A stretch of 64,000 bases of DNA from assembly GCA_037142615.1 (NCBI GenBank), contig JBAXAI010000016.1, forward strand, positions 24,318-88,317. Direction: 5' to 3'. Positions 3,417 to 64,000 of this stretch are shown here, piece by piece. A program made the position numbers and the translations under genes. Every line of letters starts with the position of its first letter. The stretch's first letter is position 1. The notes beneath the pieces were generated by a model. The model was not told the origin of the DNA. It did not search any database and was given only the letters and a program-made list of their open reading frames with translations. This DNA is from Spirochaetales bacterium. GTDB lineage: Bacteria; Spirochaetota; Spirochaetia; JABEVK01.

Positions 3417-4031
3417 ATGCCATTTACCTTGCCCAAGCTTCCTTACGCCTTTCACGATCTCGAGCCCGCCATCGACACACTGACGATGGAAATCCACTGG
3501 GCCAAGCACCATCAGGCCTACATCAACAACGCCAACGCGGCGCTGGAGAACACCGAATGGGCTTCGTGGGACGCCGAGAAGATCCTGAAGAACCTTTCGA
3601 GCCTGCCCGCCGACAAGCAGACAGTGCTTCGCAACAACGTGGGCGGCCACGTCAACCACAGCCATTTCTGGAAGACCCTCGCCATGCCCGGCAAGGGTGG
3701 CTACCCCCAGCACCACCTCGCCGCCGCCATCGACAAGCAACTCGGTGGTTTCGAAAAGTTCAAGACGGACTTCAGCAAGGCCGCACTGACCCGCTTCGGC
3801 TCCGGCTGGGGTTGGCTGGTGCTCAAGGCCGACAAGACGCTGGCTGTGGTCAGCACCCCCAACCAGGACAGCCCGGTGCTCGAAGGCGCCAAGGCCATCC
3901 TTGGCATCGACGTGTGGGAACACGCCTACTACCTGCACTACCAGAACCGCCGCACCGACTACATCGACGCCTTCTTCACCGTCGTCAACTGGAATGTCGT
4001 GAACGAAATCTACGACGAAGCGATGAAGTGA
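3417..4031 (+). CDS. sodA: superoxide dismutase (Mn-type signature)
   Basis: MPFTLPKLPY, HWAKHH, NNVGGHVNH, TPNQD and DVWEHAYY motifs; AAGGAG RBS before ATG 3417. Confidence 0.93.
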   Translation: MPFTLPKLPYAFHDLEPAIDTLTMEIHWAKHHQAYINNANAALENTEWASWDAEKILKNLSSLPADKQTVLRNNVGGHVNHSHFWKTLAMPGKGGYPQHHLAAAIDKQLGGFEKFKTDFSKAALTRFGSGWGWLVLKADKTLAVVSTPNQDSPVLEGAKAILGIDVWEHAYYLHYQNRRTDYIDAFFTVVNWNVVNEIYDEAMK

Positions 4032-9249: not shown

Positions 9250-10436
9250 GACCGCTTCACGGAAGCGTTCAGCGCGGCGTTCTTCCGAATCAGCGCCACG
9301 CGGTCCTCGACACTGGTACGGCTTCGCAGCCGGTCGGGAGGCGTGCTGTTCACGTAGTCGAGCAACTGCTCGACGCTGGTCTCGGCTACGTGCAACCGCG
9401 TATCGCTCGACGCGTAGTAGATCAGCACGCGTCCGTCCGGATCGGCGACGAGACCGTTGGTGAACACGACGTTCGACACATCGCCCGTGCGCTCCTCGCC
9501 TTCGGGGGCGATCAGATAGCCGCCGGGGGTCGCGACGGTCTTGGTGGGATCCTTCGGGTCGGCAAGGAACGCATAGATGACGTACCGCAAGCCGGCCGCC
9601 GTGTTGCGCACGCCGTGGGCGACGTGCAGCCAGCCGTCCTTGGTCTTGATGGGCGGTGTGCCGGCACCGTTCTTCACTTCCTTGATGGTGTGGTACAGCT
9701 TGGGGTCGAGCACGGTTTCCTTGGCGACCACCGCGGGGTTCATGCTTTTGCTGAGTCCGGTGCTGATGCCGCCGCCGGAGCCGGTGTCGATGAAGCCGTC
9801 TTGCGGACGCGTGTACAGCAGGTATTGGCCGCCGACAAACTCCGGATGGAGCACGACGTTGCGCTGCTGGCCGCCGCCCGTCTTGAGGTCGGGTAGGCGT
9901 TCCCACATCTTGAGGTCTTTGGTGCGGACCATGCCGGCGGTGGCCGTGGCCGAAGAGGTGTCACCGGGCTTGGCGGCGGGGTCTTTGCGCTCGGCACAAA
10001 ACAGGCCGTAGATCCATCCGTCCTCGTGAGCTGTCAGGCGCATGTCGTAGACATTGGTCTCCGGGTCGTCGACGTCGCCCAGTAGAAGGGGTTCGCCCTC
10101 GAAGCGGAAGTCGTGAACGCCATCGGGACTGCTGGCGAGCGCGAAGAAACTCTTGCGGTCCCAGCCTTCCACCCGGGCCACCAACCAATAGCGACCGCCG
10201 AAAAAGAGGGCACCGGCGTTGAACACGGCGTTGATGCCCAGCCGTTCCATGAAGAACGGGTTGGTTTTCGGATCGTAGTCGTAGCGCCACGTTGGAGGCA
10301 CGTGACCTGCCGTCAGAATGGGATGCTCGTAGCGGGTGAAAATGCCGTTGCCGGGCAACACTGGCTGGTTATGGCGGTGGATCAGCTCGTTGTACTCGCG
10401 CTCGACATGGGCTCGGCGGGTGGCAAAGTGACTCAT
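9246..10436 (-). CDS. 4-O-beta-D-mannosyl-D-glucose phosphorylase (GH130 subfamily 1)
   Basis: [48 protein letters not shown] and GDVSNVVF motifs; start MSHFATRR at 10436. Confidence 0.88.
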
Positions 10437-40485: not shown

Positions 40486-41020
40486 GCTGCTTGCCTTGCT
40501 CCTGACCTTCAGCTGCGCGGCCAGCGGTTGGTCTCAGGATTTTGACACCAACACCTTGACGGTGCGGCAAGTGTGGGACAACGTCACGACCCTGTATGCG
40601 ACGGGCCACACGTTTACCCCCGACGAGTTCGGGCGACTCAAGGCGTTTCAGAAGTCCCTGCTCGACGCCGGTGAAACAGACCTGGCGGCCCGTCTGGACC
40701 TGCTCATGCTGGCCGCAGCCCGCGAGAATGCCGAAGCCGACGCAGACGCCCGGCTGGAGCGCGGTGGTCAGGCCTGGCTAACGGTTCAGGCTGCCGAAAA
40801 GCGCCACCAGGAGGCCATCGCTTGGGAAGCCGTGCGCAACATCGGGCTCGGAGGTTTTGCCCTTTCGACGGCCGGGACCTTGGCCGTTGCGGCCGTTTGG
40901 CAACGTAGCCCGTCGCTCCCTGCAGACACGGTGACGGCCCTGAAGTGGACCTTCTGGAGTTCGTTTGCCACGCTGGTGATGACTTTGGTACCGCTGGTAA
41001 CCGGCGAAATCAACCGCTGA
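40475..41020 (+). CDS. hypothetical membrane protein
   Basis: Signal peptide and two C-terminal transmembrane segments; AAGGAGG RBS. Confidence 0.6.
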   Translation: MRTKLLALLLTFSCAASGWSQDFDTNTLTVRQVWDNVTTLYATGHTFTPDEFGRLKAFQKSLLDAGETDLAARLDLLMLAAARENAEADADARLERGGQAWLTVQAAEKRHQEAIAWEAVRNIGLGGFALSTAGTLAVAAVWQRSPSLPADTVTALKWTFWSSFATLVMTLVPLVTGEINR

Positions 41021-41882
41021 CGAGAGGGGGCACGGCCGGTCGGTTGGGCTTTTTCTGGAAGTAGACGCCGCGGAGGTGCCTCTTGGCCTCCAGCTCGGCC
41101 GAAAAACCCGGCAGCACTTCGGTCGATCCCAAGAGGAGCGCACCCTCGGGGGCAAGAACCCGGATCAGGTTGCGAAAGAGCAAGTTCTTGTCGGTTTCCG
41201 AGAAGTAGATGGCGACGTTCCGGCAAAAGATGAGGTCGAACGCCGGGGTGGTGGCAAACGGCTCCAAAAGGTTGGCCTTGCGGAAGGTGGCGAACGCCCG
41301 CAGTTCGTCGCGGACTTTCCAGCGGTCGCCTGCGGCCTCGAAATGAAGTTGCGTCCTCGCCTCGCTGAGACCCCGCATCAGTTCTGCTTTGTGATAAAAG
41401 CCGTAGCTGGCGGCCGCGACGGCCTGATCGGAAATATCGACGCCCAGAATGCGCACGTCGTAGGCGGTCAAGTCGCCCAGTAATTCCTTGAGCGTGATGG
41501 CGATGCTGTAGGCTTCTTGCCCGGTTGAACAGGCAGCACTCAAGATCCGGATGGGGATGGGACGGATCCCCAAGCGACTGCGACGGTCGATCAGCTCGGG
41601 GATCAGCTTGTGCTGCAGCAGTTCAAAGGGTGTGCTGTCGCGGAAGAACGAGGTTTCGTTGGTGGTGATGGCGTCGATCACCTGCGAGCGCAGGCGGGGG
41701 TCGGTCGACGAGCGGACGCGAGTCAGGAGCTCTGCCCAGCTGGCCGAGCCGGTCTCTTTGAGCAAGGCCGCCAGACGGGTCTCAACCAAGTAACCCTTTG
41801 TGCTGTCGAGCGTAATGCCGCAAAGTTCGCGGACATAACGCCCCCAGGCCAGCAGCTCATCGGGAGTCAGAGGAGTGCTCAT
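41010..41882 (-). CDS. cheR: chemotaxis methyltransferase
   Basis: TTNETSFFRD, SAACSTGQEAYS and IFCRNVAIYF motifs. Confidence 0.93.
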   Translation of the reverse strand: MSTPLTPDELLAWGRYVRELCGITLDSTKGYLVETRLAALLKETGSASWAELLTRVRSSTDPRLRSQVIDAITTNETSFFRDSTPFELLQHKLIPELIDRRSRLGIRPIPIRILSAACSTGQEAYSIAITLKELLGDLTAYDVRILGVDISDQAVAAASYGFYHKAELMRGLSEARTQLHFEAAGDRWKVRDELRAFATFRKANLLEPFATTPAFDLIFCRNVAIYFSETDKNLLFRNLIRVLAPEGALLLGSTEVLPGFSAELEAKRHLRGVYFQKKPNRPAVPPLVSG

Positions 41883-56355: not shown

Positions 56356-57567
56356 TCAAAACCCCAGCGCGTAGGTCACATCGAGCAGTTCAGCATACGT
56401 GGTCACACCCAGTTTGACCCGCCAGCGGTTGAACTCCGCGTAGGCGCACAGCCCGAACACATCGGAGCTGATGCCCTGGTAGCCGACTCCCAGGCGGAAG
56501 CTGTCGCCAAAAGGAAAATACACCCCGCCGCTGTAGCCGAGGTCGGTGCTGGCGATATCGAGGTCAGCAAACCAGCCCATCGAGGGCGAAATAGCATTGG
56601 TAAAGCCCACCGTGAGCCCGTTCGTGCTGGCGTACGAAGACGCGGCAACCATAACCCCGACGGGGATGCGCCAAGTGCTGGCGCTCGGCGTTGCGCTCGG
56701 CGCAGGCTCGGCGGCAGGTGCGGGCTCGACTACAGGCTTGCTCACCACGGCAGCAGGGGTTACCACAGGGGCCACGCCCCCGGACTTTCCGGTCAGGTAG
56801 AAGTTGGCAGTCAAGCTGCTGTTGATCCAGGGCTTTTGCGTACCCCCAGAAACCGTGCGAACCTCGCCCGAAACTTTCTTGAACACATCTTCGATCTGCA
56901 GATCGGCAGCCATGTACTTGAGCAGCGCGGCGGTAAACACGCCGTTGCGCGCGGTGCCATCTTGCGCCACATCGCCGGGACTGGTCGAGAACATCACGGC
57001 CGAGCCCTGCGCCCCGGCGTTATTCGGTACCGCCGACAGGCCGCGGGTCCCGCCCAACGAACGGGTCATCTTTTTGACAAACGGATTGTCACGGCAGGCG
57101 TCGAGAATGACCAGCGACACGCCCACCCTCGCCTCTTCCATGGCGCCGGTGACGAGGTCGATGCTCAGCGCCTCGGACTTCACGTCTTCGACCGACTCAA
57201 GCTGCGCATCAACAGGAACCAGAAAGTTGGCCCCTGCAACCTGGATGCCGTGCCCGGCGTAGTAAAACAGCGCGCTGGCACCCACACTCTGACCCAAATC
57301 GTTTTTGAAGGTGGTGATGGCCTTGTTGAAGGCTCGCCTGTCCACATCGGTGGCCAAAGTGACCTTCCAACCGAGTTTTTTCAGCCCGGCGGCGACATCG
57401 CTGGCGTCGTTGGTCGGGTTCTTCAGGGTTGCATCGCCACCGTAGGCCGAGTTTCCCACCACAAGCGCCAAGCGTGCAGGCTCGGCCGCTGCCAGATTTC
57501 CCGCCACGGCCGTAGAGAGTGCGAACACGAGGGCCAAAGTGACAAGACGAAACGATATTCGCAGCAT
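56356..57567 (-). CDS. secreted caspase-family (peptidase C14) protein with a C-terminal beta-rich domain
   Basis: Signal peptide; ALVVGNSAY, FYYAGHG, LDACRDNP and QKPW; Pro/Ala linker; ends ...YALGF. Confidence 0.88.
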   Translation of the reverse strand: MLRISFRLVTLALVFALSTAVAGNLAAAEPARLALVVGNSAYGGDATLKNPTNDASDVAAGLKKLGWKVTLATDVDRRAFNKAITTFKNDLGQSVGASALFYYAGHGIQVAGANFLVPVDAQLESVEDVKSEALSIDLVTGAMEEARVGVSLVILDACRDNPFVKKMTRSLGGTRGLSAVPNNAGAQGSAVMFSTSPGDVAQDGTARNGVFTAALLKYMAADLQIEDVFKKVSGEVRTVSGGTQKPWINSSLTANFYLTGKSGGVAPVVTPAAVVSKPVVEPAPAAEPAPSATPSASTWRIPVGVMVAASSYASTNGLTVGFTNAISPSMGWFADLDIASTDLGYSGGVYFPFGDSFRLGVGYQGISSDVFGLCAYAEFNRWRVKLGVTTYAELLDVTYALGF

Positions 57568-57665
57568 GGAAATCCTCCGATGGTGGCCATCTTGGCACCG
57601 AAGCTCGAAGAGGATCAAGGGCGGTCGGGGGACAGACCTAGTCGGTCGGTCACGGCGCTCGCCGT

Positions 57666-57860
57666 TGTCGTAGTTCTACGATATCCGGCAGGCGCGAACC
57701 CCCTGAGGATGATCACGATCGAAGGAGATCGTCATGCAAGGGTTCGTTTCAGCAATACTATTTCCCGTTTGTGTATTGGGAGGGGTCCCGTGGGCTGCGG
57801 CCCTTGAGTTCGAAGGGAGAGTTTCTCTGGGGGTGACCCTGTGAAGAATCTCAAACTTCT
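57666..57860 (+). repeat. duplicated regulatory/leader cassette, copy 1
   Basis: First 49 nt identical to 62895-62943; similarity continues into the MKNLKLL codons of the downstream gene. Confidence 0.9.
57734..57844 (+). CDS. putative 36-aa leader peptide MQGFVSAILFPVCVLGGVPWAAALEFEGRVSLGVTL
   Basis: AAGGAG-N6-ATG; TGA overlaps the downstream GTG (GTGA); homologous ORF at 62963. Confidence 0.55.
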   Translation: MQGFVSAILFPVCVLGGVPWAAALEFEGRVSLGVTL

Positions 57861-60660
57861 GGTTGCGTTGGCGTTGTTCGGTGGAATGGCCTGGAGCCAG
57901 GACACTTCGGTTCCCCGGTTTGGAATGGGCACCTACGGCAACCTGGGGTATGGGTCCTCCGGCGTCACCGGTGTTCCCGGTGCCACCATCCTGTTGGGCG
58001 ATTTTCCCATCGGCATCCATCTGGGCACGTCCCAGGGCGTGTACGAGTCGGCCCTCAACCTCGACTGGCACTTTTGGAACCAGCAGTTTGCCGGCAGCAC
58101 GCTGGGCTGGTTTGCCGGCGCGGGAATCTACGGCGGTTACGGCACCGACTTCGCGGACTTTCAGGTCGCGGGGGCCGGCGGCCGGGGACTGCTGGGCGTG
58201 CGCAACGTGTTCTTCAAGGCTTGGGAGGCCTACGTGGCGATGACCCCTTCCTACGGGGTCAACTACTTCAGCAACATTCTTTACCCGCACTGGAGCGTCG
58301 ATTTCGAAACCGGCCTGCGTTTCCTGTTCCCGGTCAGCACCAACCCCGTCAAGGTCGTGGAAGCTCCCCATCCTCAAGTTCTTCTGGTACCCATGCTCAA
58401 CGCCTTCACCCCCGGGCTCAAAGGCCCCATGGGAACGTTGAACCTTTCGCTTCGCCCGCTGGCCATCGACCGGGTCAAGTCCTGGAAGCTCCTGGTTGCC
58501 GACGCCGCGGGAGCGGAGCTCTACGCGGCCCGTGGCGAGGGCTCACCGCCTGCAACCCTGCCGTGGAACGGTCTTGTCAAAGACAAACCCGCTCCCGAGG
58601 GCAGCTATCGGGCCACGATCTCGGTCACCTACACCGACGGTCAGCTGGCCGAAGTCGCCAGCAAGCCCTTCGCCATCGACATGTCGGTCCCCGAGGTGGT
58701 GGCAGCCCCGGTCAAACCTCGCTTCAACCCCAATCAGGATGCGGGCGACAGTTTCCAGCTGGACGTCGCCGCCAAGAGTTCGGCCGAGCTCACCAAGTGG
58801 TCGTTTGCCGTTGCCGACGAGTCAGGCGCCGAGTTGTACGCCCAAGAGGGCACGGGAACTCCCCCCTCGACGCTGGAATGGAACGGCGTCGGCGGGGCAG
58901 GGGCTATCGCGGGTCAAGGCAAGAACTACACCTACACGGTCGGAGTGACCGACAGCATGGGAAAATCCCAATCGAGCCAGGGCGTGATCGCGGTCGACTT
59001 TGTGCACCCGGCCCTGAGCCTGACCGCCGACCGCCTCGCGTTCAGCCCCGTTGGCGACCCCCAGCAAGTCCTGCTCACGGTGAGCCCCGGGGAAATCCAG
59101 GCCGTGACGGGTTGGAAGCTTCAGATTCTCGATGCGAAAGGCGAGAACGTCCGGGAGTTCTCGGGAAAAGGCGCGGTTCCCGCCTCGCTGGTGTGGGACG
59201 GAACCAACGGCCTGAGCCTGCCCGTGGAAGGCTCCATGAGCGCCAAATTGCTGGTGAGCTACACCTTCGACGAAAACGGCGCGGTCGAGTCGGCTCCGTT
59301 CGAGGTCTCGACCACAGGGCCCAAGCTTTCAGTGGCCCTGGCCGCCAAGCACTTCCTGCCCGGTGGCGACGGCCAGAACGAGCTTCAGACCCTCCAGTTG
59401 GGCGCCAGCTCGAAGTTTGACCTGACGCGTTGGAACCTCGCGGTCAACCGGCCCGACGGCACGACCCTGCGCACCTGGAGCGGCGAAGGGCAGCCACCTA
59501 CCGAGGTGGCCTTTAACGGCAAAGGCGATGATGGAACAACGCTGGTTGCCTTCGGTGCCGATGCCGCGTGGGTGTACCAGGCCACCGACGTCCTGGGCCA
59601 GAAATCGACCCTCAAGGGTCTCCTGCCGGTCGATTTGCCCCGGCCCGCCGTCACCCTGTCGGCGCCGGCTGCTTTCAGTCCGCTCGGTACCACCAAAGTT
59701 CTCCCGGTGGCCCAGGAACCGGCAACCTTGACCCGCGTGAAAACCTGGCTGTTCTCGGTTTTGAACAAGGAGGGCACGGTTGTCTACCAGTTGCCCGGCC
59801 AGGGTTCACCGGCCGCGCTGACGTGGGATGGCCGCAACCGCAGCGCTCAGGTGGTCGAGGGTTCCTACACCGCGAAGCTCGACGTGGTTTACGACCGGGG
59901 CGAGGTGGGTTCGGCAGTCAGCCAGCCCTTCCTGCTCGACAACAGCGTGCCGAAGTTGACCGCCTCGCGTCCCGACGCACCGTGGACCCCTGATGGGGAC
60001 GGCTACGACGACGCCTGGGGCCTGACCACCAAAGTCACCAACCTTTCGCCCGTGGCCTCGTGGGAACTCGTGGTTACCGACCCCACCGGCCAACCGTTCC
60101 GCACCCTCAAGGTTGCCTCCGCGCTCCCCGAGCTTGTGCCGTGGGATGGAAAGTCCGACTCCGGCGAATCGGTGAGCAGCGCCGAGACCTACAGCTGGAA
60201 ACTCTCGGTTGTCGACACCTTGGGCAAAGCCGCCAGTGCCAGCGGAAAGGTGACCACCGACATTCTGGCCCTTCCCGGTCCCGGCGGCCTGCGGCTCGAC
60301 CTCACCGGCCTCACCTTTGTGCCCAACAAAGCCACCTTGGTGAGCGACGCAAGCGAAGGCGGCAAGAAGAACGCGGAGTTGCTGTCCAAGCTCAACACGG
60401 TGCTCGACCGCCTTGCGGACTACAAGATCACCATCGTGGGTCACGCCATCAACCTCAGCGGCACCGCCAAGGAAGAGGTTGAGCTCGGAGTGCTCTCAAC
60501 AGCGCGCGCCGAGGCCGTCAAGGCCATGCTGGTGAGCAAAGGCCTCCCGGCCCAACGCATCACTGCGGCTGGAAAGGGCGGCACCGACCAGGTGGTCCCC
60601 GATACCGACAAGGTGAACCGCTGGAAGAACCGCAGGGTCGAGTTCCTGCTCACAAAATAA
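57841..60660 (+). CDS. outer-envelope protein: N-terminal beta-barrel-like domain, FlgD-type Ig repeats, OmpA peptidoglycan-binding domain
   Basis: Signal peptide; amphipathic strands; about six W-x-L-x-V...WDG/WNG Ig units; LSTARAEAVK...NRRVEF. Confidence 0.85.
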   Translation: MKNLKLLVALALFGGMAWSQDTSVPRFGMGTYGNLGYGSSGVTGVPGATILLGDFPIGIHLGTSQGVYESALNLDWHFWNQQFAGSTLGWFAGAGIYGGYGTDFADFQVAGAGGRGLLGVRNVFFKAWEAYVAMTPSYGVNYFSNILYPHWSVDFETGLRFLFPVSTNPVKVVEAPHPQVLLVPMLNAFTPGLKGPMGTLNLSLRPLAIDRVKSWKLLVADAAGAELYAARGEGSPPATLPWNGLVKDKPAPEGSYRATISVTYTDGQLAEVASKPFAIDMSVPEVVAAPVKPRFNPNQDAGDSFQLDVAAKSSAELTKWSFAVADESGAELYAQEGTGTPPSTLEWNGVGGAGAIAGQGKNYTYTVGVTDSMGKSQSSQGVIAVDFVHPALSLTADRLAFSPVGDPQQVLLTVSPGEIQAVTGWKLQILDAKGENVREFSGKGAVPASLVWDGTNGLSLPVEGSMSAKLLVSYTFDENGAVESAPFEVSTTGPKLSVALAAKHFLPGGDGQNELQTLQLGASSKFDLTRWNLAVNRPDGTTLRTWSGEGQPPTEVAFNGKGDDGTTLVAFGADAAWVYQATDVLGQKSTLKGLLPVDLPRPAVTLSAPAAFSPLGTTKVLPVAQEPATLTRVKTWLFSVLNKEGTVVYQLPGQGSPAALTWDGRNRSAQVVEGSYTAKLDVVYDRGEVGSAVSQPFLLDNSVPKLTASRPDAPWTPDGDGYDDAWGLTTKVTNLSPVASWELVVTDPTGQPFRTLKVASALPELVPWDGKSDSGESVSSAETYSWKLSVVDTLGKAASASGKVTTDILALPGPGGLRLDLTGLTFVPNKATLVSDASEGGKKNAELLSKLNTVLDRLADYKITIVGHAINLSGTAKEEVELGVLSTARAEAVKAMLVSKGLPAQRITAAGKGGTDQVVPDTDKVNRWKNRRVEFLLTK

Positions 60661-60672
60661 GGAGTGAACATT

Positions 60673-62784
60673 ATGAAACCAAACAAGTCCTTCCACCGGC
60701 CCTTTGTGCTCGTGACCCTTCTCGCGCTGCTGGTCACCTGCAGCAGTCCTTACCTCATCATCAAAAGCGACGCGGTGGACGGAGCGGCGGTCACGAAGCT
60801 CAACACCAGCCTCCAGCCGACCCTCGTCAGCGGCGACGTGCTGACGGCAGTGACCAGCAATCTCACTTTGCCCACCACCGATGCCAGCGGGGCCACCATT
60901 GTGTGGAAATCCAGCGACTCGGCGGTCGTTGCCGCCGATGGTAGTGTCACAGCCCCCGCCGCCGGAGCGGCCGATGTGACGGTCACCCTGACGGCCACCA
61001 TTACCAAGGGCTCCGCCACGCAGACCAAGACCTTCACGGTTATTGTGAAAGCCGGTAGCGGCTTGACGGTGACCTTTGACGACCAAGGCGCCAGCACAGC
61101 GGTGACGCCTGCAACCAAGAAGGTCGTCAGCCCGGCGACGACAGTTGACGCCCTTCCCACCGACCCGGCCAAGACCGGCTACACCTTCGACGGTTGGTGG
61201 ACGGCCATCAGCGGGGGTGGAACGCAGTTCCTGGCCGCCACGGCCGTGACAGCCAAGCTCACCGTGTACGCCAAATGGACAGCGGTAGGGGGCGGCGGAA
61301 CGACCTACACCGTCACCCTCGACGACCAAAACGCCACCACGGCAGTCACGCCCACCACCAAGGCAGTGGTCAGCCCGGCGACAGCGGTTGATGCCCTTCC
61401 CACCGACCCCGCGAAGACTGGCAATGTGTTTGGCGGTTGGTGGACAGCAATCAATGGCGGAGGTACACAGTTCACCGCGGCCACCTCTGTCAGCGCCAGT
61501 CTCACCGTGTACGCCAAGTGGACCACGGCCTTCACAGTCAGCTTCAACGACCAAAGCGCCACCACGGCAGTCACGCCCACCACCAAGGCGGTGGTCAGCC
61601 CGGCGACCGCGGTTGATGCTCTACCCACCGACCCCGCAAGGACTGGCTATGCCTTTGGCGGTTGGTGGACAGCAACCAATGGTGGTGGCACTCAGTTCAC
61701 TGCGGCCACGACCGTGAGCGCTAGTCTCACCGTGTACGCCAAGTGGACGGTTGCCCTGAGTTCAACCAAAGCCATCACGGGATTTAGTTTCACCAGCCTG
61801 GCCGCGACCGGAACTGTCACGCAAGCGGACCACACGATCGCGATAAGCGTTCCCAGTAACGCCATCCTTGCCTCGCTTAAGCCCGCGATCACACAAACTG
61901 GTGCCAGCGTGAGTCCGGCCTCGGGCGTGGCCAACGACTTCGTCTTCGACACCCCGGTGACCTACACGGTCACCGCAGCCGATGGCTCGACCCAAGCCTA
62001 CACGGTGACAGTCAAGAAAGTTCTTTGGACCACCTACACCTCGACCGAAGGCTTGGCAGACAACCTTGTCAGAGGGGTCTACGTCTCGGGCACGACCATC
62101 TACGCCGCGACCGTCGCCGGTTTGTCTGTTTCAACCGACCCAGGGTCGGTCTGGACCAACTACACCAATGTCACCACGAACAATGGCATTATTGACAACA
62201 TGGTCCATAGCGTCTACGTCTCGGGCTCGTACATTTACGCCGCGACCGACATCGGTTTGTCTGTTTCATCCGACTCGGGGCAGAGCTGGGCCACCCCAAC
62301 AAAATCGGATAATGGCTTGGCAGACGACGCTGTCAGTGGTGTCTGGGCTACGGGCGCAACCGTCTATGCCGCGACCGGCAGTGGTTTGTCGGTTTCGAGC
62401 GATAAGGGACACAGCTTTACCAACTACGCCTGGGTCGACGGCCAGTTTATAAGATCGGTCACAGGGGTCTACGTCTCGGGCTCGACCATCTATGCCGCGA
62501 CCACCAGAGGCTTGGAAATTAAGGACGGGACAGGCCAGTGGATCAACTACCCCCTGAACGGGCCCGGGAGCCGCATAGTGGTCAACGGGGTCTACGCCTC
62601 TGGCTTGGACATCTACGCCGCGACCATGGTGCAGGGTTTGTCGATTTCGAAAGACGGGGGAGCCAGTTGGACCAACTACAACAAGGCGGTCAACGGCTTG
62701 GCAGACGACTGGGTCTACGGGGTCTACGTCTCGGGCTCGACCATCTACGCCGCTACCTCCGGTGGTTTGTCGGTGGGCCAATGA
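60673..62784 (+). CDS. surface lipoprotein with Ig-like domain, three InlB B-repeats and beta-propeller repeats
   Basis: Lipobox LLVTC; three LPTDP.KTG..F.GWWTA..GG...TVYAKWT repeats; GVYVSGSTIYAAT..GLS repeats. Confidence 0.85.
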   Translation: MKPNKSFHRPFVLVTLLALLVTCSSPYLIIKSDAVDGAAVTKLNTSLQPTLVSGDVLTAVTSNLTLPTTDASGATIVWKSSDSAVVAADGSVTAPAAGAADVTVTLTATITKGSATQTKTFTVIVKAGSGLTVTFDDQGASTAVTPATKKVVSPATTVDALPTDPAKTGYTFDGWWTAISGGGTQFLAATAVTAKLTVYAKWTAVGGGGTTYTVTLDDQNATTAVTPTTKAVVSPATAVDALPTDPAKTGNVFGGWWTAINGGGTQFTAATSVSASLTVYAKWTTAFTVSFNDQSATTAVTPTTKAVVSPATAVDALPTDPARTGYAFGGWWTATNGGGTQFTAATTVSASLTVYAKWTVALSSTKAITGFSFTSLAATGTVTQADHTIAISVPSNAILASLKPAITQTGASVSPASGVANDFVFDTPVTYTVTAADGSTQAYTVTVKKVLWTTYTSTEGLADNLVRGVYVSGTTIYAATVAGLSVSTDPGSVWTNYTNVTTNNGIIDNMVHSVYVSGSYIYAATDIGLSVSSDSGQSWATPTKSDNGLADDAVSGVWATGATVYAATGSGLSVSSDKGHSFTNYAWVDGQFIRSVTGVYVSGSTIYAATTRGLEIKDGTGQWINYPLNGPGSRIVVNGVYASGLDIYAATMVQGLSISKDGGASWTNYNKAVNGLADDWVYGVYVSGSTIYAATSGGLSVGQ
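61066..61750 (+). repeat. three intragenic ~220-bp InlB B-repeat copies
   Basis: Near-identical units starting at about 61066, 61303 and 61528. Confidence 0.85.
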
Positions 62785-62886
62785 CCGGGCGCCCTACCAA
62801 TTAGTCCACTGAGATCACCCCTACCCGGATTCCCCATTTGAGGAGTTCGGCTAGGGGTGATTTTCAATTGGGGAGGCCGCGCGTCA
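62781..62886. other. long intergenic hairpin
   Basis: ATCACCCCTA/TAGGGGTGAT core, with outer CCAATT/AATTGG and TGAC/GTCA arms. Confidence 0.55.
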
Positions 62887-62894
62887 ATACCGCC

Positions 62895-63086
62895 TGTCGT
62901 AGTTCTACGATATCCGGCAGGCGCGAACCCCCTGAGGATGATCTCAAGCAAAGGAGATCATCATGCAAAGGTTCATGTCAGCAAAACTGTTTTCTGTTGG
63001 TGTATTGGGAAGGGCCAAGTGGGCTGCCCTTGAGTTCGAAGAGGGAGTTTCCCAGGGGGTGACTCTGTGAAAAATCTCAAACTTCT
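62895..63086 (+). repeat. duplicated regulatory/leader cassette, copy 2
   Basis: Homologous to 57666-57860. Confidence 0.9.
62963..63070 (+). CDS. putative 35-aa leader peptide MQRFMSAKLFSVGVLGRAKWAALEFEEGVSQGVTL
   Basis: AAGGAG-N6-ATG; TGA overlaps GTG 63067; the only indel relative to copy 1 is one codon. Confidence 0.55.
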   Translation: MQRFMSAKLFSVGVLGRAKWAALEFEEGVSQGVTL

Positions 63087-64000
63087 GGCTTTGCTGGCGG
63101 CCCTGGCGGTCCTGGCAGGCTGTTTCAACGCGGTCACCGAACCCAACCCGTCTGATGGGTCTCAAATCCCCACCAACTTGTCCGACACTTTGGTCTTGGG
63201 CGGCAACACCGACCTTCTGAACATCAGGGGAGGCTTGGCCCTCCCCGACGCCGGCGCTGACGGTTCGTCGATAACCTGGACGTCGAGCAACCCTGCGGTG
63301 GTTTCGGCTTCCGGAGTGGTCAGGCGGCCCCCAAAAGGGACGGGCACCACCGTAACCCTGACCGCCACGATAACCAAAAACGGCAAGACCGTCACAAAGA
63401 CCTTTACCATCAGCGTCCAGCCGGTGCCCGCCGACGCCAGCATGGCCATCACCGACGACAAGGCAACCCTGGTCGACTCCCTGATCCGGGGAACCAACAG
63501 CAACCTGGCCACTGTCAACGCCAGCCTGAGCCTGCCGACAACGGGCCCCAGTGGTACCTCCATCGTCTGGGCCAGCGACAACCCCGCCGTCGGCTGCGAT
63601 GGAACCGTGACGCGGCCCGCTGCCGGTTCTCTGGCCGCCACGGTCACCCTTACGGCCAGCTTCACCAAGTCCGGCGGCACCACGGTGACCAGTACCTTTA
63701 CGGTGGTCGTCCAGCCGGCATCCGCCGACGCCGGCGTGGCCATCACCGACGACAAGGCAGCGCTGGTCGCCTGCCTGATCCGGGGAACCAACGCCAACCT
63801 CACCACCGTTACCGCCAGCCTGAGCCTGCCCACCACGGGCCCCAGCGGTACTTCCATCGCCTGGGCCAGCGACAACCCAGCCATCGGCCCCGACGGAACC
63901 GTGACGAGGCCCGCCGCAGGTTCTCCGGCTGCCATGGTCACCCTTACTGCCACCATCACCAAGAACGGCGGCACCCCGGTGACCAACACCTTTACGGTAA
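63067..64000 (+). CDS. surface lipoprotein with tandem Ig-like repeats (runs off the window)
   Basis: Manual translation MKNLKLLALLAALAVLAGC (lipobox), then LP...G.SI.W.S.NPA repeats; 297-bp DNA repeats at about 63415 and 63712; open to the window end. Confidence 0.85.
   Translation, partial: MKNLKLLALLAALAVLAGCFNAVTEPNPSDGSQIPTNLSDTLVLGGNTDLLNIRGGLALPDAGADGSSITWTSSNPAVVSASGVVRRPPKGTGTTVTLTATITKNGKTVTKTFTISVQPVPADASMAITDDKATLVDSLIRGTNSNLATVNASLSLPTTGPSGTSIVWASDNPAVGCDGTVTRPAAGSLAATVTLTASFTKSGGTTVTSTFTVVVQPASADAGVAITDDKAALVACLIRGTNANLTTVTASLSLPTTGPSGTSIAWASDNPAIGPDGTVTRPAAGSPAAMVTLTATITKNGGTPVTNTFTV

Follow-up and report, generated by a model that had tools for sequence, protein, structure and literature searches.

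The window analysed here, a 64,000-nucleotide stretch of contig JBAXAI010000016.1 from a member of the Spirochaetales (GenBank assembly GCA_037142615.1), contains two copies, A and B, of a short expression cassette placed directly in front of two envelope-protein genes that are unrelated to each other, here called gene A and gene B. Each copy consists of a palindrome, a hairpin that carries a Shine-Dalgarno (SD) sequence, an upstream open reading frame (uORF) of 36 or 35 codons, and a stop codon that overlaps the GTG start codon of the following gene (Table 1). As detailed below, the uORF is very probably what remains of a gene for an outer-membrane β-barrel protein, the middle part of which has been lost in frame.

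Table 1. Coordinates of the cassettes, the genes that follow them and the related intact operons. Positions are those of the window, except for the last row.
Feature	Positions	Strand	Evidence or remark
Cassette copy A, whole block, to codon 8 of gene A	57666-57864	+	alignment, BLAST E 4e-63
Cassette copy B, whole block	62895-63090	+	alignment, BLAST
Stretch of 49 nt identical in both copies; holds the palindrome and probably the core promoter	57666-57714	+	49/49, against 87/107 in the uORF
Palindrome of 16 bp, GTCGTAGTTCTACGAT, 7-2-7 inverted repeat, presumed regulator site, copy A	57667-57682	.	genome scan
Palindrome of 16 bp, GTCGTAGTTCTACGAT, copy B	62896-62911	.	window and genome scan
Hairpin GAUGAUC / GAUCGUC, copy A; SD AAGGAG (57722-57727) in loop and 3' arm, ends at the uORF ATG	57708-57733	+	minimum-energy fold
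Hairpin GAUGAUC / GAUCAUC, copy B; SD AAGGAG (62951-62956)	62937-62962	+	z -2.95, 1/200 shuffles as stable
Probable relic cistron A, 36 codons	57734-57844	+	57734-57817 = barrel codons 1-28, 57818-57844 = last codons and stop; four-way DNA alignment
Probable relic cistron B, 35 codons	62963-63070	+	four-way DNA alignment; hhalign E 0.047
Gene A, 939 aa; signal peptide, N-terminal barrel-like region (by eye), FlgD_ig repeats, C-terminal OmpA	57841-60660	+	Pfam
Second gene of the copy A operon, 706-aa lipoprotein; aBig_2, three Flg_new repeats, propeller-like tail	60664-62784	+	begins 4 nt after the gene A stop
Strong intrinsic terminator, after the copy A operon and before cassette B	62810-62869	+	-37.3 kcal/mol, z -6.0, 0/200 shuffles as stable; followed by UUUUCAAUU
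Gene B, aBig_2-repeat lipoprotein, runs off the contig end	63067-63999	+	Pfam; paralogue of the lipoproteins after intact barrels
Intact operons: gene for a 189-aa predicted eight-stranded barrel, ATGA overlap, gene for an aBig_2 lipoprotein of 652 or 885 aa	L048 2849-3418, 9354-9923	minus	also L049, L050, L043

The preliminary description of this DNA had reported a block of about 195 bp at 57666 and again at 62895, the first 49 nt of which are the same in both places, and pairwise alignment agrees with this: the blocks are each about 200 bp long, 87% identical, and without a mismatch between 57666-57714 and 62895-62943. The match begins one base before the 16-bp palindrome, or 2 nt before its 14-bp core. 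Of the 46 nt on the 5' side of the block, 16 match between the copies, and in the 40 alignment columns that follow the first 24 nt of the main genes there are again 16 matches, so that the flanks on both sides are unrelated. Within the block the similarity is uneven. There are 14 matches among the 19 positions of the hairpin loop and SD, 87 among the 107 of the uORF (68/84 in its body), 23 among 27 around the stop/start overlap, and 22 among the initial 24 nt of the main genes. When copy A was used to search the whole 4.27-Mb assembly with BLAST, copy B was recovered (E 4e-63, 87% identity), and the remaining 12 matches were no longer than 29 nt (E at least 0.12). The search for further copies that had been proposed for this element thus gives a count of two in the genome, and the block is absent from 40 relatives searched with BLAST. 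The statement that no named element matches it holds for Rfam 15, in which positions 57000-64000 gave three matches at E <= 10, all far below the gathering scores and none in a cassette.

The two copies are direct repeats flanking 5.2 kb. Both of the sequences that bear the short ORF are not an assembly artefact, because independent contigs from metagenome runs carry them without differences to the window: a single contig of run X2 covers 57300-58788, and a single contig of run X7 covers 62947-63174. The window stretch is present in freshwater and lake metagenome runs from several studies, and four runs have contigs that are 99% identical to it over 25-30 of 30 depth bins per run. Run X7 also holds a contig of depth 2.3 (window 62808-63009) in which the upstream flank of copy B is joined to copy-A-type sequence after the identical 49 nt. 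It has 13 differences, of which the eight listed all carry the copy-A letter, and represents a natural recombinant or else a chimera of the assembly.

Both uORFs have an SD and a start codon of their own (AAGGAG, 6 nt, ATG). Their lengths of 36 and 35 codons, the single indel of exactly one codon between them, and the overlap of their TGA with the GTG of main genes that both start with MKNLKLL were all found as previously described. The overlap reads GTGA at 57841-57844 and 63067-63070, and ATGA in the intact paralogues.

A DNA alignment of four loci indicates that the uORF corresponds to approximately the first 28 and the last eight codons of a gene for a 189-aa protein, and that about 460 nt (ca. 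153 codons) between them are gone, in frame. In comparisons with the profile of this barrel family using hhalign, uORF A was matched with E 4e-4 and uORF B with E 0.047. Local DNA alignments of the 3' part land on the stop/start junction of the intact genes in all six comparisons, with 0-10 of 300 shuffled sequences scoring as high, and the homology continues into the next gene, which begins with MKSIKLLVAAL in the relative and with MKNLKLLVALAL in the window. The short version retains the SD and ATG of the full gene, its last codons (LGVTL), an internal G-run that resembles an SD, and the stop/start overlap. Based on these comparisons, the uORF is in all probability a relic of the 189-aa barrel gene, with the interior deleted in frame. 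This had been named as one alternative in the preliminary description, and it is now supported by the head and tail that the uORF shares with a gene that is intact in paralogous operons with the same palindrome.

The relic peptides differ between the copies as neutral sequence does, and the peptide is unconstrained. The uORFs are separated by 12.5 non-synonymous and 5.5 synonymous differences, giving a ratio of non-synonymous to synonymous substitution rates (dN/dS) of 0.74, in a small sample of 18 changes, as compared to 0.19-0.25 for the same codons in the intact genes. By codon, 11 changes are non-synonymous and four synonymous, and the three codon positions have 7, 5 and 6 changes. Eleven of the 35 aligned residues differ. 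The copy B peptide has K8, R17 and K19 inside the former hydrophobic core, and the copy A peptide lacks a basic N-region. Given the neutral dN/dS and the charged residues in the core of copy B, the peptide has not been kept as a signal peptide or as a sensor.

Intact copies of the barrel gene were identified at four places: two on contig C51 of the window genome (locus L048), one in another genome of the same genus (G001, locus L050) and one in a metagenome contig (L049). The 189-aa protein (MSIRRLLPLLAALFLLGGPLASALEIEFG...GFLFTTILGVTL) ends in LGVTL, and its TGA overlaps the ATG of the gene for a large aBig_2 lipoprotein that starts with MKLL or MKSIKLL. Every copy has the 16-bp palindrome, the hairpin at the SD and the TGA/ATG overlap, except that the first C51 copy folds differently. 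Over their full length the intact barrel genes have a dN/dS of 0.16-0.18, which is indicative of purifying selection. The near identity of the two C51 operons in their 5' halves (dS 0.06) points to a duplication or a gene conversion not long ago. The AlphaFold model of the protein, which is of moderate confidence (predicted local distance difference test score, pLDDT, 67; predicted template-modelling score 0.60), contains a signal helix and eight strands. NspA, Ail, the OmpA transmembrane domain and OmpW lead the Foldseek ranking, OmpX comes tenth (E 1.3e-3), and nine matches have E <= 0.001. There is no Pfam match above threshold to the 189-aa protein, that is, no match to a curated family of outer-membrane proteins (OMPs), and three of nine remote relatives have a sub-threshold match to PF13505. 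The intact gene is a real gene under selection, and its product is predicted to be an eight-stranded β-barrel OMP.

Only four close clusters of the protein were found among 5.8 billion proteins, the gene is present in 2 of the 12 genomes of the order (the window genome and G001), and a scan of metagenomes added one intact copy, L049. In its close form, the two-gene operon was found in only two species of the genus. No further cassette of the relic type was recovered from the metagenomes with a pattern of palindrome, SD and ATG, which matched two loci, both intact (L049 and the G001 copy, L050), and a scan of genome contigs matched the G001 record alone.

The inverted repeat TCGTAG-TT-CTACGA was confirmed in each cassette. 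Its 14-mer core, TCGTAGTTCTACGA, is located at 57668-57681 and 62897-62910; 0.15 occurrences are expected in the window, and none of 100 shuffled windows reached the observed count. In the genome there are four exact sites, namely the two cassettes and two on contig C51, and each is placed ahead of the barrel-type gene family, the C51 sites at 65-67 nt (start to start) 5' of the ATG of the 189-aa gene. The 16-mer ATCGTAGTTCTACGAT is identical at all 16 positions in both C51 copies, G001 and L049, and at 15 of 16 positions in both cassettes. In all six copies the palindrome lies 49-51 nt 5' of the ATG, and the flanking sequences are unalignable. The inverted repeat is thus kept in sequence and in position across the diverged promoters of one gene family, as an operator is, and a protein-binding site is suggested because it is the identity of the bases, and not merely their pairing, that is kept. 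We consider it rather probable that the palindrome is a protein-binding operator. In four genomes of the same genus the palindrome has one exact match, at the barrel gene of G001, and three matches with one mismatch, compared to six matches for the reversed control.

A second half-site (CGTAGTT/CGCAGTT) is located 22 nt upstream of the palindrome's own half-site in both C51 copies and in G001 (L048 ca. 3485-3510 and 9988-10012, minus strand; L050 ca. 460-482), but is absent from L049 and from both window cassettes. The cassette palindrome is absent upstream of the remote barrel relatives described below. Two of these (L071 and L072) have a different 18-bp inverted repeat, ATCA(C/A)CCGTTCGGGTGAT, about 69 nt before the barrel ATG.

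The hairpin GATGATC...GATC(G/A)TC that carries AAGGAG was likewise as described, being present in the minimum-energy folds of both window copies, where it is moderately more stable than shuffled sequence (z -1.2 in copy A and -2.95 in copy B). The G-to-A change in copy B relative to copy A replaces a G-U pair with an A-U pair. A hairpin over the SD, or over the SD and the AUG, occurs in five of the six family members, and the sequences of its arms differ between the relic and the intact type. In the second C51 copy and in L049 it belongs to the minimum-energy fold (z -2.7 and -3.15); in G001 it is seen in the centroid fold only (z -0.7), and the first C51 copy folds differently (z -0.9). Whether the hairpin is present on the mRNA depends on where transcription starts. 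In a remote relative of the barrel gene (L067), an anti-SD hairpin of -19.2 kcal/mol is located 40 nt before the barrel ATG.

The terminator between the copy A operon and cassette B (Table 1) was missed by the terminator rules of the promoter and terminator scan and was detected by folding. With such a strong terminator ahead of copy B, each cassette must bring or abut a promoter of its own. The terminator, together with the start of the homology between the copies just one base 5' of the 16-mer, supports copy B beginning its own transcription unit. Given where this homology starts, the simplest place for the promoter would be within the invariant 49 nt.

Turning to the downstream genes, gene B aligns colinearly with the first C51 lipoprotein from Met1 onwards, at 46% identity. 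Because gene B is the paralogue of the cognate lipoprotein, copy B is in our reading the native site, an old operon with a collapsed first gene. Gene A shares its first nine or so codons with the start of the intact-operon lipoprotein genes and nothing more with that family, and a search of the family's 11 other genomes for an orthologue of its N-terminal domain found none, matching the Ig-like repeats alone; for these reasons copy A looks as if it has been grafted onto a different gene. The earlier reading of a cleavable signal peptide in gene A and a lipoprotein signal in gene B still stands as a reading by eye (AWS/QD and LAGC, respectively). A paralogue of the N-terminal domain of gene A, 36% identical over residues 28-169, is encoded on contig C29 of the window genome (G000; 40855-41280, minus strand); it has one in-frame TAA and may be a broken gene. 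On the other side of copy A, and divergent from it, an exported protein with a caspase domain (Peptidase_C14) is encoded at 56356-57618 on the minus strand. The ca. 145 residues that follow this domain have no family match and, judged by eye, seem to be rich in β-strands.

The lipid-modified cysteine is followed by FNAVTEPN in gene B and by SNMINDL in the four relatives. The SNMINDL stretch, here referred to as the tether motif, is shared without change by the four lipoproteins whose barrel partner is intact and is missing from the N-terminus of gene B (63067-63150), which fits a joint loss of barrel and tether motif in the gene B lineage.

Taken together, these results suggest the following course of events. 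The ancestral operon would have comprised the 16-bp palindrome, an SD within a hairpin, the 189-aa barrel gene, an ATGA overlap and the gene for an aBig_2 lipoprotein of the surface type. In the window lineage, the barrel gene would have lost about 153 codons in frame to become a mini-cistron of 35 or 36 codons, and the cassette, together with the initial 8-9 codons of the lipoprotein's signal peptide, would also have been placed before the unrelated OmpA-family gene (copy A). A regulator bound to the palindrome would control a promoter inside the 49-nt invariant stretch. Ribosomes would load at the strong SD of the relic, translate 35-36 codons of indifferent sequence and terminate on GTGA, whereupon restart, or the local unfolding of the RNA, would serve the weak GTG of the envelope gene, which lies 7 nt after the SD-like G-run inside the relic. 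A reusable expression module that acts through translational coupling, as the preliminary description had proposed, remains the best functional reading of the sequence. We give a probability of roughly 60% to the overall proposal, namely that an operator and promoter precede a decayed first cistron, which survives as a leader for ribosome delivery and was later copied onto the OmpA-family gene. The chances that coupling is still needed for translation of the downstream genes seem about even.

A number of results weigh against this proposal. The scan for sigma-70-like promoters found none on the plus strand of the cassettes; its three sites are all on the minus strand, and none serves a cassette. 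No regulator gene was seen adjoining any copy of the palindrome, neither in the Pfam annotation of the window nor among five ORFs near the intact operons, which encode a PIN toxin, an AAA/DUF4143 protein, a thioesterase and two proteins that match no family, one of them resembling, as judged by eye, an exported coiled-coil protein. A wider palindrome regulon was not found either, as a search of the genome with up to two mismatches gave 11 + 19 sites, against 29 + 18 for the control, the pattern in reverse. In DNA comparisons, the 5' part of the relic showed no significant similarity to the C51 genes, with four of six comparisons being no better than shuffles and off the colinear position; both alignments to L049 are colinear, and the scores were reached by 5 of 300 shuffles for copy B and by 36 of 300 for copy A. 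Folds of the whole leader are unremarkable compared to shuffles (z -0.4 and -1.3). The main start of the relics is predicted to be paired (-17.1 and -19.9 kcal/mol), and the corresponding junction of the intact operons has less structure than shuffled sequence (z +1.1 to +1.6), but the pairing in the relics is no more stable than in shuffles (z -0.17 and -1.28). The GGGGG in front of the GTG makes independent initiation possible. Finally, there are two relic copies only, and both come from one deletion, which makes the open frame and the in-frame indel weak evidence for selection; by a rough estimate, inferred rather than computed, the frame would survive under neutrality with a chance of 15-25%.

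Several of these points are what would be expected if the mini-ORF were a roleless remnant of the deletion, with the block shared through recent duplication or gene conversion and with genes A and B starting on their own G-run. The dN/dS of the uORF, the even spread of its changes over codon positions, the single deletion behind two copies and the absence of the block from 40 relatives all agree with such neutral debris. However, the conservation tracks function, in that the 5' end is invariant, the SD and ATG are kept, and the overlap (23/27) and the start of the main genes (22/24) are better preserved than the uORF body (68/84). Both main genes also have a weak GTG that overlaps the stop codon, and both the deletion and the later indel preserved the frame. 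This uneven conservation and the preserved frame are suggestive of continued function, and we regard neutral debris as a possible but rather unlikely explanation, which the proposed ribosome-delivery leader outweighs.

It is considerably less probable that the element acts mainly as a structured RNA that regulates in cis, for instance as a thermometer or in the way of a riboswitch, and that the ORF is incidental. The hairpins over the SD, with their different arms in five of six members, and the strong hairpin of L067 would fit such an RNA, but the cassettes have no Rfam match, the leader as a whole folds no better than shuffles, none of the 58 pairs predicted in a two-sequence consensus fold shows compensatory changes on both sides, and the hairpin would be part of the mRNA only if transcription starts upstream of it.

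In relapsing-fever Borrelia, upstream homology sequences serve the recombination of surface-protein genes. By analogy, the cassette of this spirochaete could provide homology for recombination, by which genes for surface proteins would be exchanged, duplicated or deleted at a site of expression, and the direct repeats with their identical first 49 nt, the low-depth hybrid contig of run X7 and the near-identical 5' halves of the C51 operons can be read in this way. The hybrid contig has, however, its junction in the exact 49-nt repeat and, at its depth of 2.3, may be a chimera; both copies precede full-length genes with putative promoters of their own, no silent cassettes were seen, and no joints were reported in the four metagenome runs. 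We therefore hold recombination to be improbable as the explanation.

Least probable of all is a secretion sensor of the SecM or MifM kind, in which the nascent chain would be regulatory and would gate the downstream gene, as had been suggested from a peptide made of a signal peptide and the first strand of an OMP with a stop overlapping the next start; the divergence of the peptides, the charged core residues of copy B and the missing basic N-region of copy A leave this suggestion unsupported, as do the lack of a conserved arrest-type motif and the nature of the downstream genes (an OmpA/FlgD_ig protein and an aBig_2 lipoprotein), which are not secretion factors. A dedicated sensor peptide was rejected on the grounds of relic homology and neutral divergence, and the proposed dN/dS check of the uORF revealed no constraint on the peptide.

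The pairing of barrel and lipoprotein extends beyond the close homologs. With the barrel-family profile, remote relatives were identified in 13 of 401 genomes of the class, the window genome and G001 included. Ten remote loci (L065-L074) were inspected, one of which is cut by a contig end, and in all nine that could be assessed the barrel gene is followed, at a distance of -1 to +92 nt, by a gene with a lipobox, as judged by eye. The motif S-[N/D]-[M/I/F] follows the lipid-modified cysteine in seven of the nine. As far as gene order and sequence motifs can tell, the barrel-lipoprotein gene pair is conserved across the class. For the C51 pair (barrel residues 23-189 and lipoprotein residues 19-125), a complex was predicted with a score of 0.67, compared to 0.01 for the best control. 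Of 157 solved complexes, 116 come up to this mark, as do 2 of 215 mismatched pairs; these counts hold only roughly, as the alignments used here were shallow and our own. The prediction runs agree in at least 83% of the contacts, and the pLDDT of the partner is at least 86. In the predicted complex, lipoprotein residues 19-33, which form the conserved tether, contact barrel residues 38-42, 82-88, 121-142 and 173-178. These correspond to the loops between strands 1-2, 3-4, 5-6 and 7-8 of the model, which would be the outer loops under the usual barrel topology. The barrel and the lipoprotein are accordingly predicted to bind each other.

As to what else lies near the intact copies, one of the C51 operons has a divergent gene for a PIN-domain toxin (L048 3765-4163, plus strand), probably with a small antitoxin gene ahead of it, and a similar small divergent gene, read by eye, occupies the corresponding place in G001. 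The exported coiled-coil-like ORF, the AAA gene and the thioesterase gene mentioned above are the other genes next to intact copies.

A more far-reaching and tentative scenario can be drawn up from these observations. The cassette may be a portable, natural bicistronic unit, in which the head and tail of a gene were selected purely as a ribosome loader under a dedicated operator and then transplanted, with the ancestral barrel docking the conserved CSNMxxDL tether of its cognate lipoprotein on its presumed outer loops and gene B having lost the tether together with the barrel. The ancestral operon would then be a spirochaete pair for surface display that has so far not been described. We regard this extended version as doubtful. 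If the relic still drives translation, it offers a clear natural example of the birth of a leader cistron, in which a gene decays under the need to keep serving the start of its neighbour, and what results can be moved to another gene. Annotators may take from the cassette the caution that a strong SD and a short ORF before an envelope gene can be a gene remnant and not a sensor peptide, and the barrel and lipoprotein pair with its predicted interface is a testable lead on how lipoproteins are held at the surface of spirochaetes.

Compared to known systems, the ancestor of the relic is of the type of NspA, Ail/OmpX, the OmpA transmembrane domain and OmpW, all of which have a signal peptide and eight strands. 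The Foldseek E-values range from 2e-5 to 1e-3, and the target-normalised template-modelling scores of the top five (NspA, Ail, OmpA transmembrane domain) are 0.52-0.64, except for a full-length OmpA model with 0.34. Unlike these proteins, the 189-aa protein has no Pfam family at threshold, ends in a leucine rather than an aromatic residue, and always has a lipoprotein gene after it. With SecM and MifM, the cassette shares a signal-peptide-like uORF ahead of envelope-related genes, but it differs from them in having no conserved arrest motif, in its neutral evolution and in the genes that it precedes. In titles and abstract openings, we found no precedent for a spirochaete barrel-lipoprotein operon and nothing equivalent among gene-remnant uORFs.

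Short ORFs that merely deliver ribosomes to a gene coupled at -4 nt are described in a review (PMC12548453). As in these uORFs, the cassette ORF has its own SD and start, a stop that overlaps the next start (GTGA) and a peptide whose sequence is apparently irrelevant. It differs from them in being traceable to a decayed full-length gene with its operator and in being set before a second, unrelated gene, and the dependence of downstream translation on it is putative. The same review mentions the interspersed repetitive units of mycobacteria (MIRUs), repeated elements with an internal ORF that is also coupled at -4 nt to the following gene. MIRUs are mobile inserts within operons, dispersed at gene starts in many copies, whereas the cassette has two copies in its genome and none in 40 relatives, an operator and SD of its own, and no sign of mobility. 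Synthetic bicistronic designs are mentioned there as well. In such designs, a leader cistron with a strong SD, an inner 3' element resembling an SD, an overlapping stop/start and the use of one cassette for several genes are combined. The cassette described here is natural, has 35-36 codons and carries the first 8-9 codons of the downstream signal peptide; its logic, if our proposal is correct, is what synthetic biologists built into their bicistronic cassettes. The element thus combines features of known kinds, namely translational coupling, leader cistrons and gene remnants, in a new variant that is of note for its traceable origin and its reuse.

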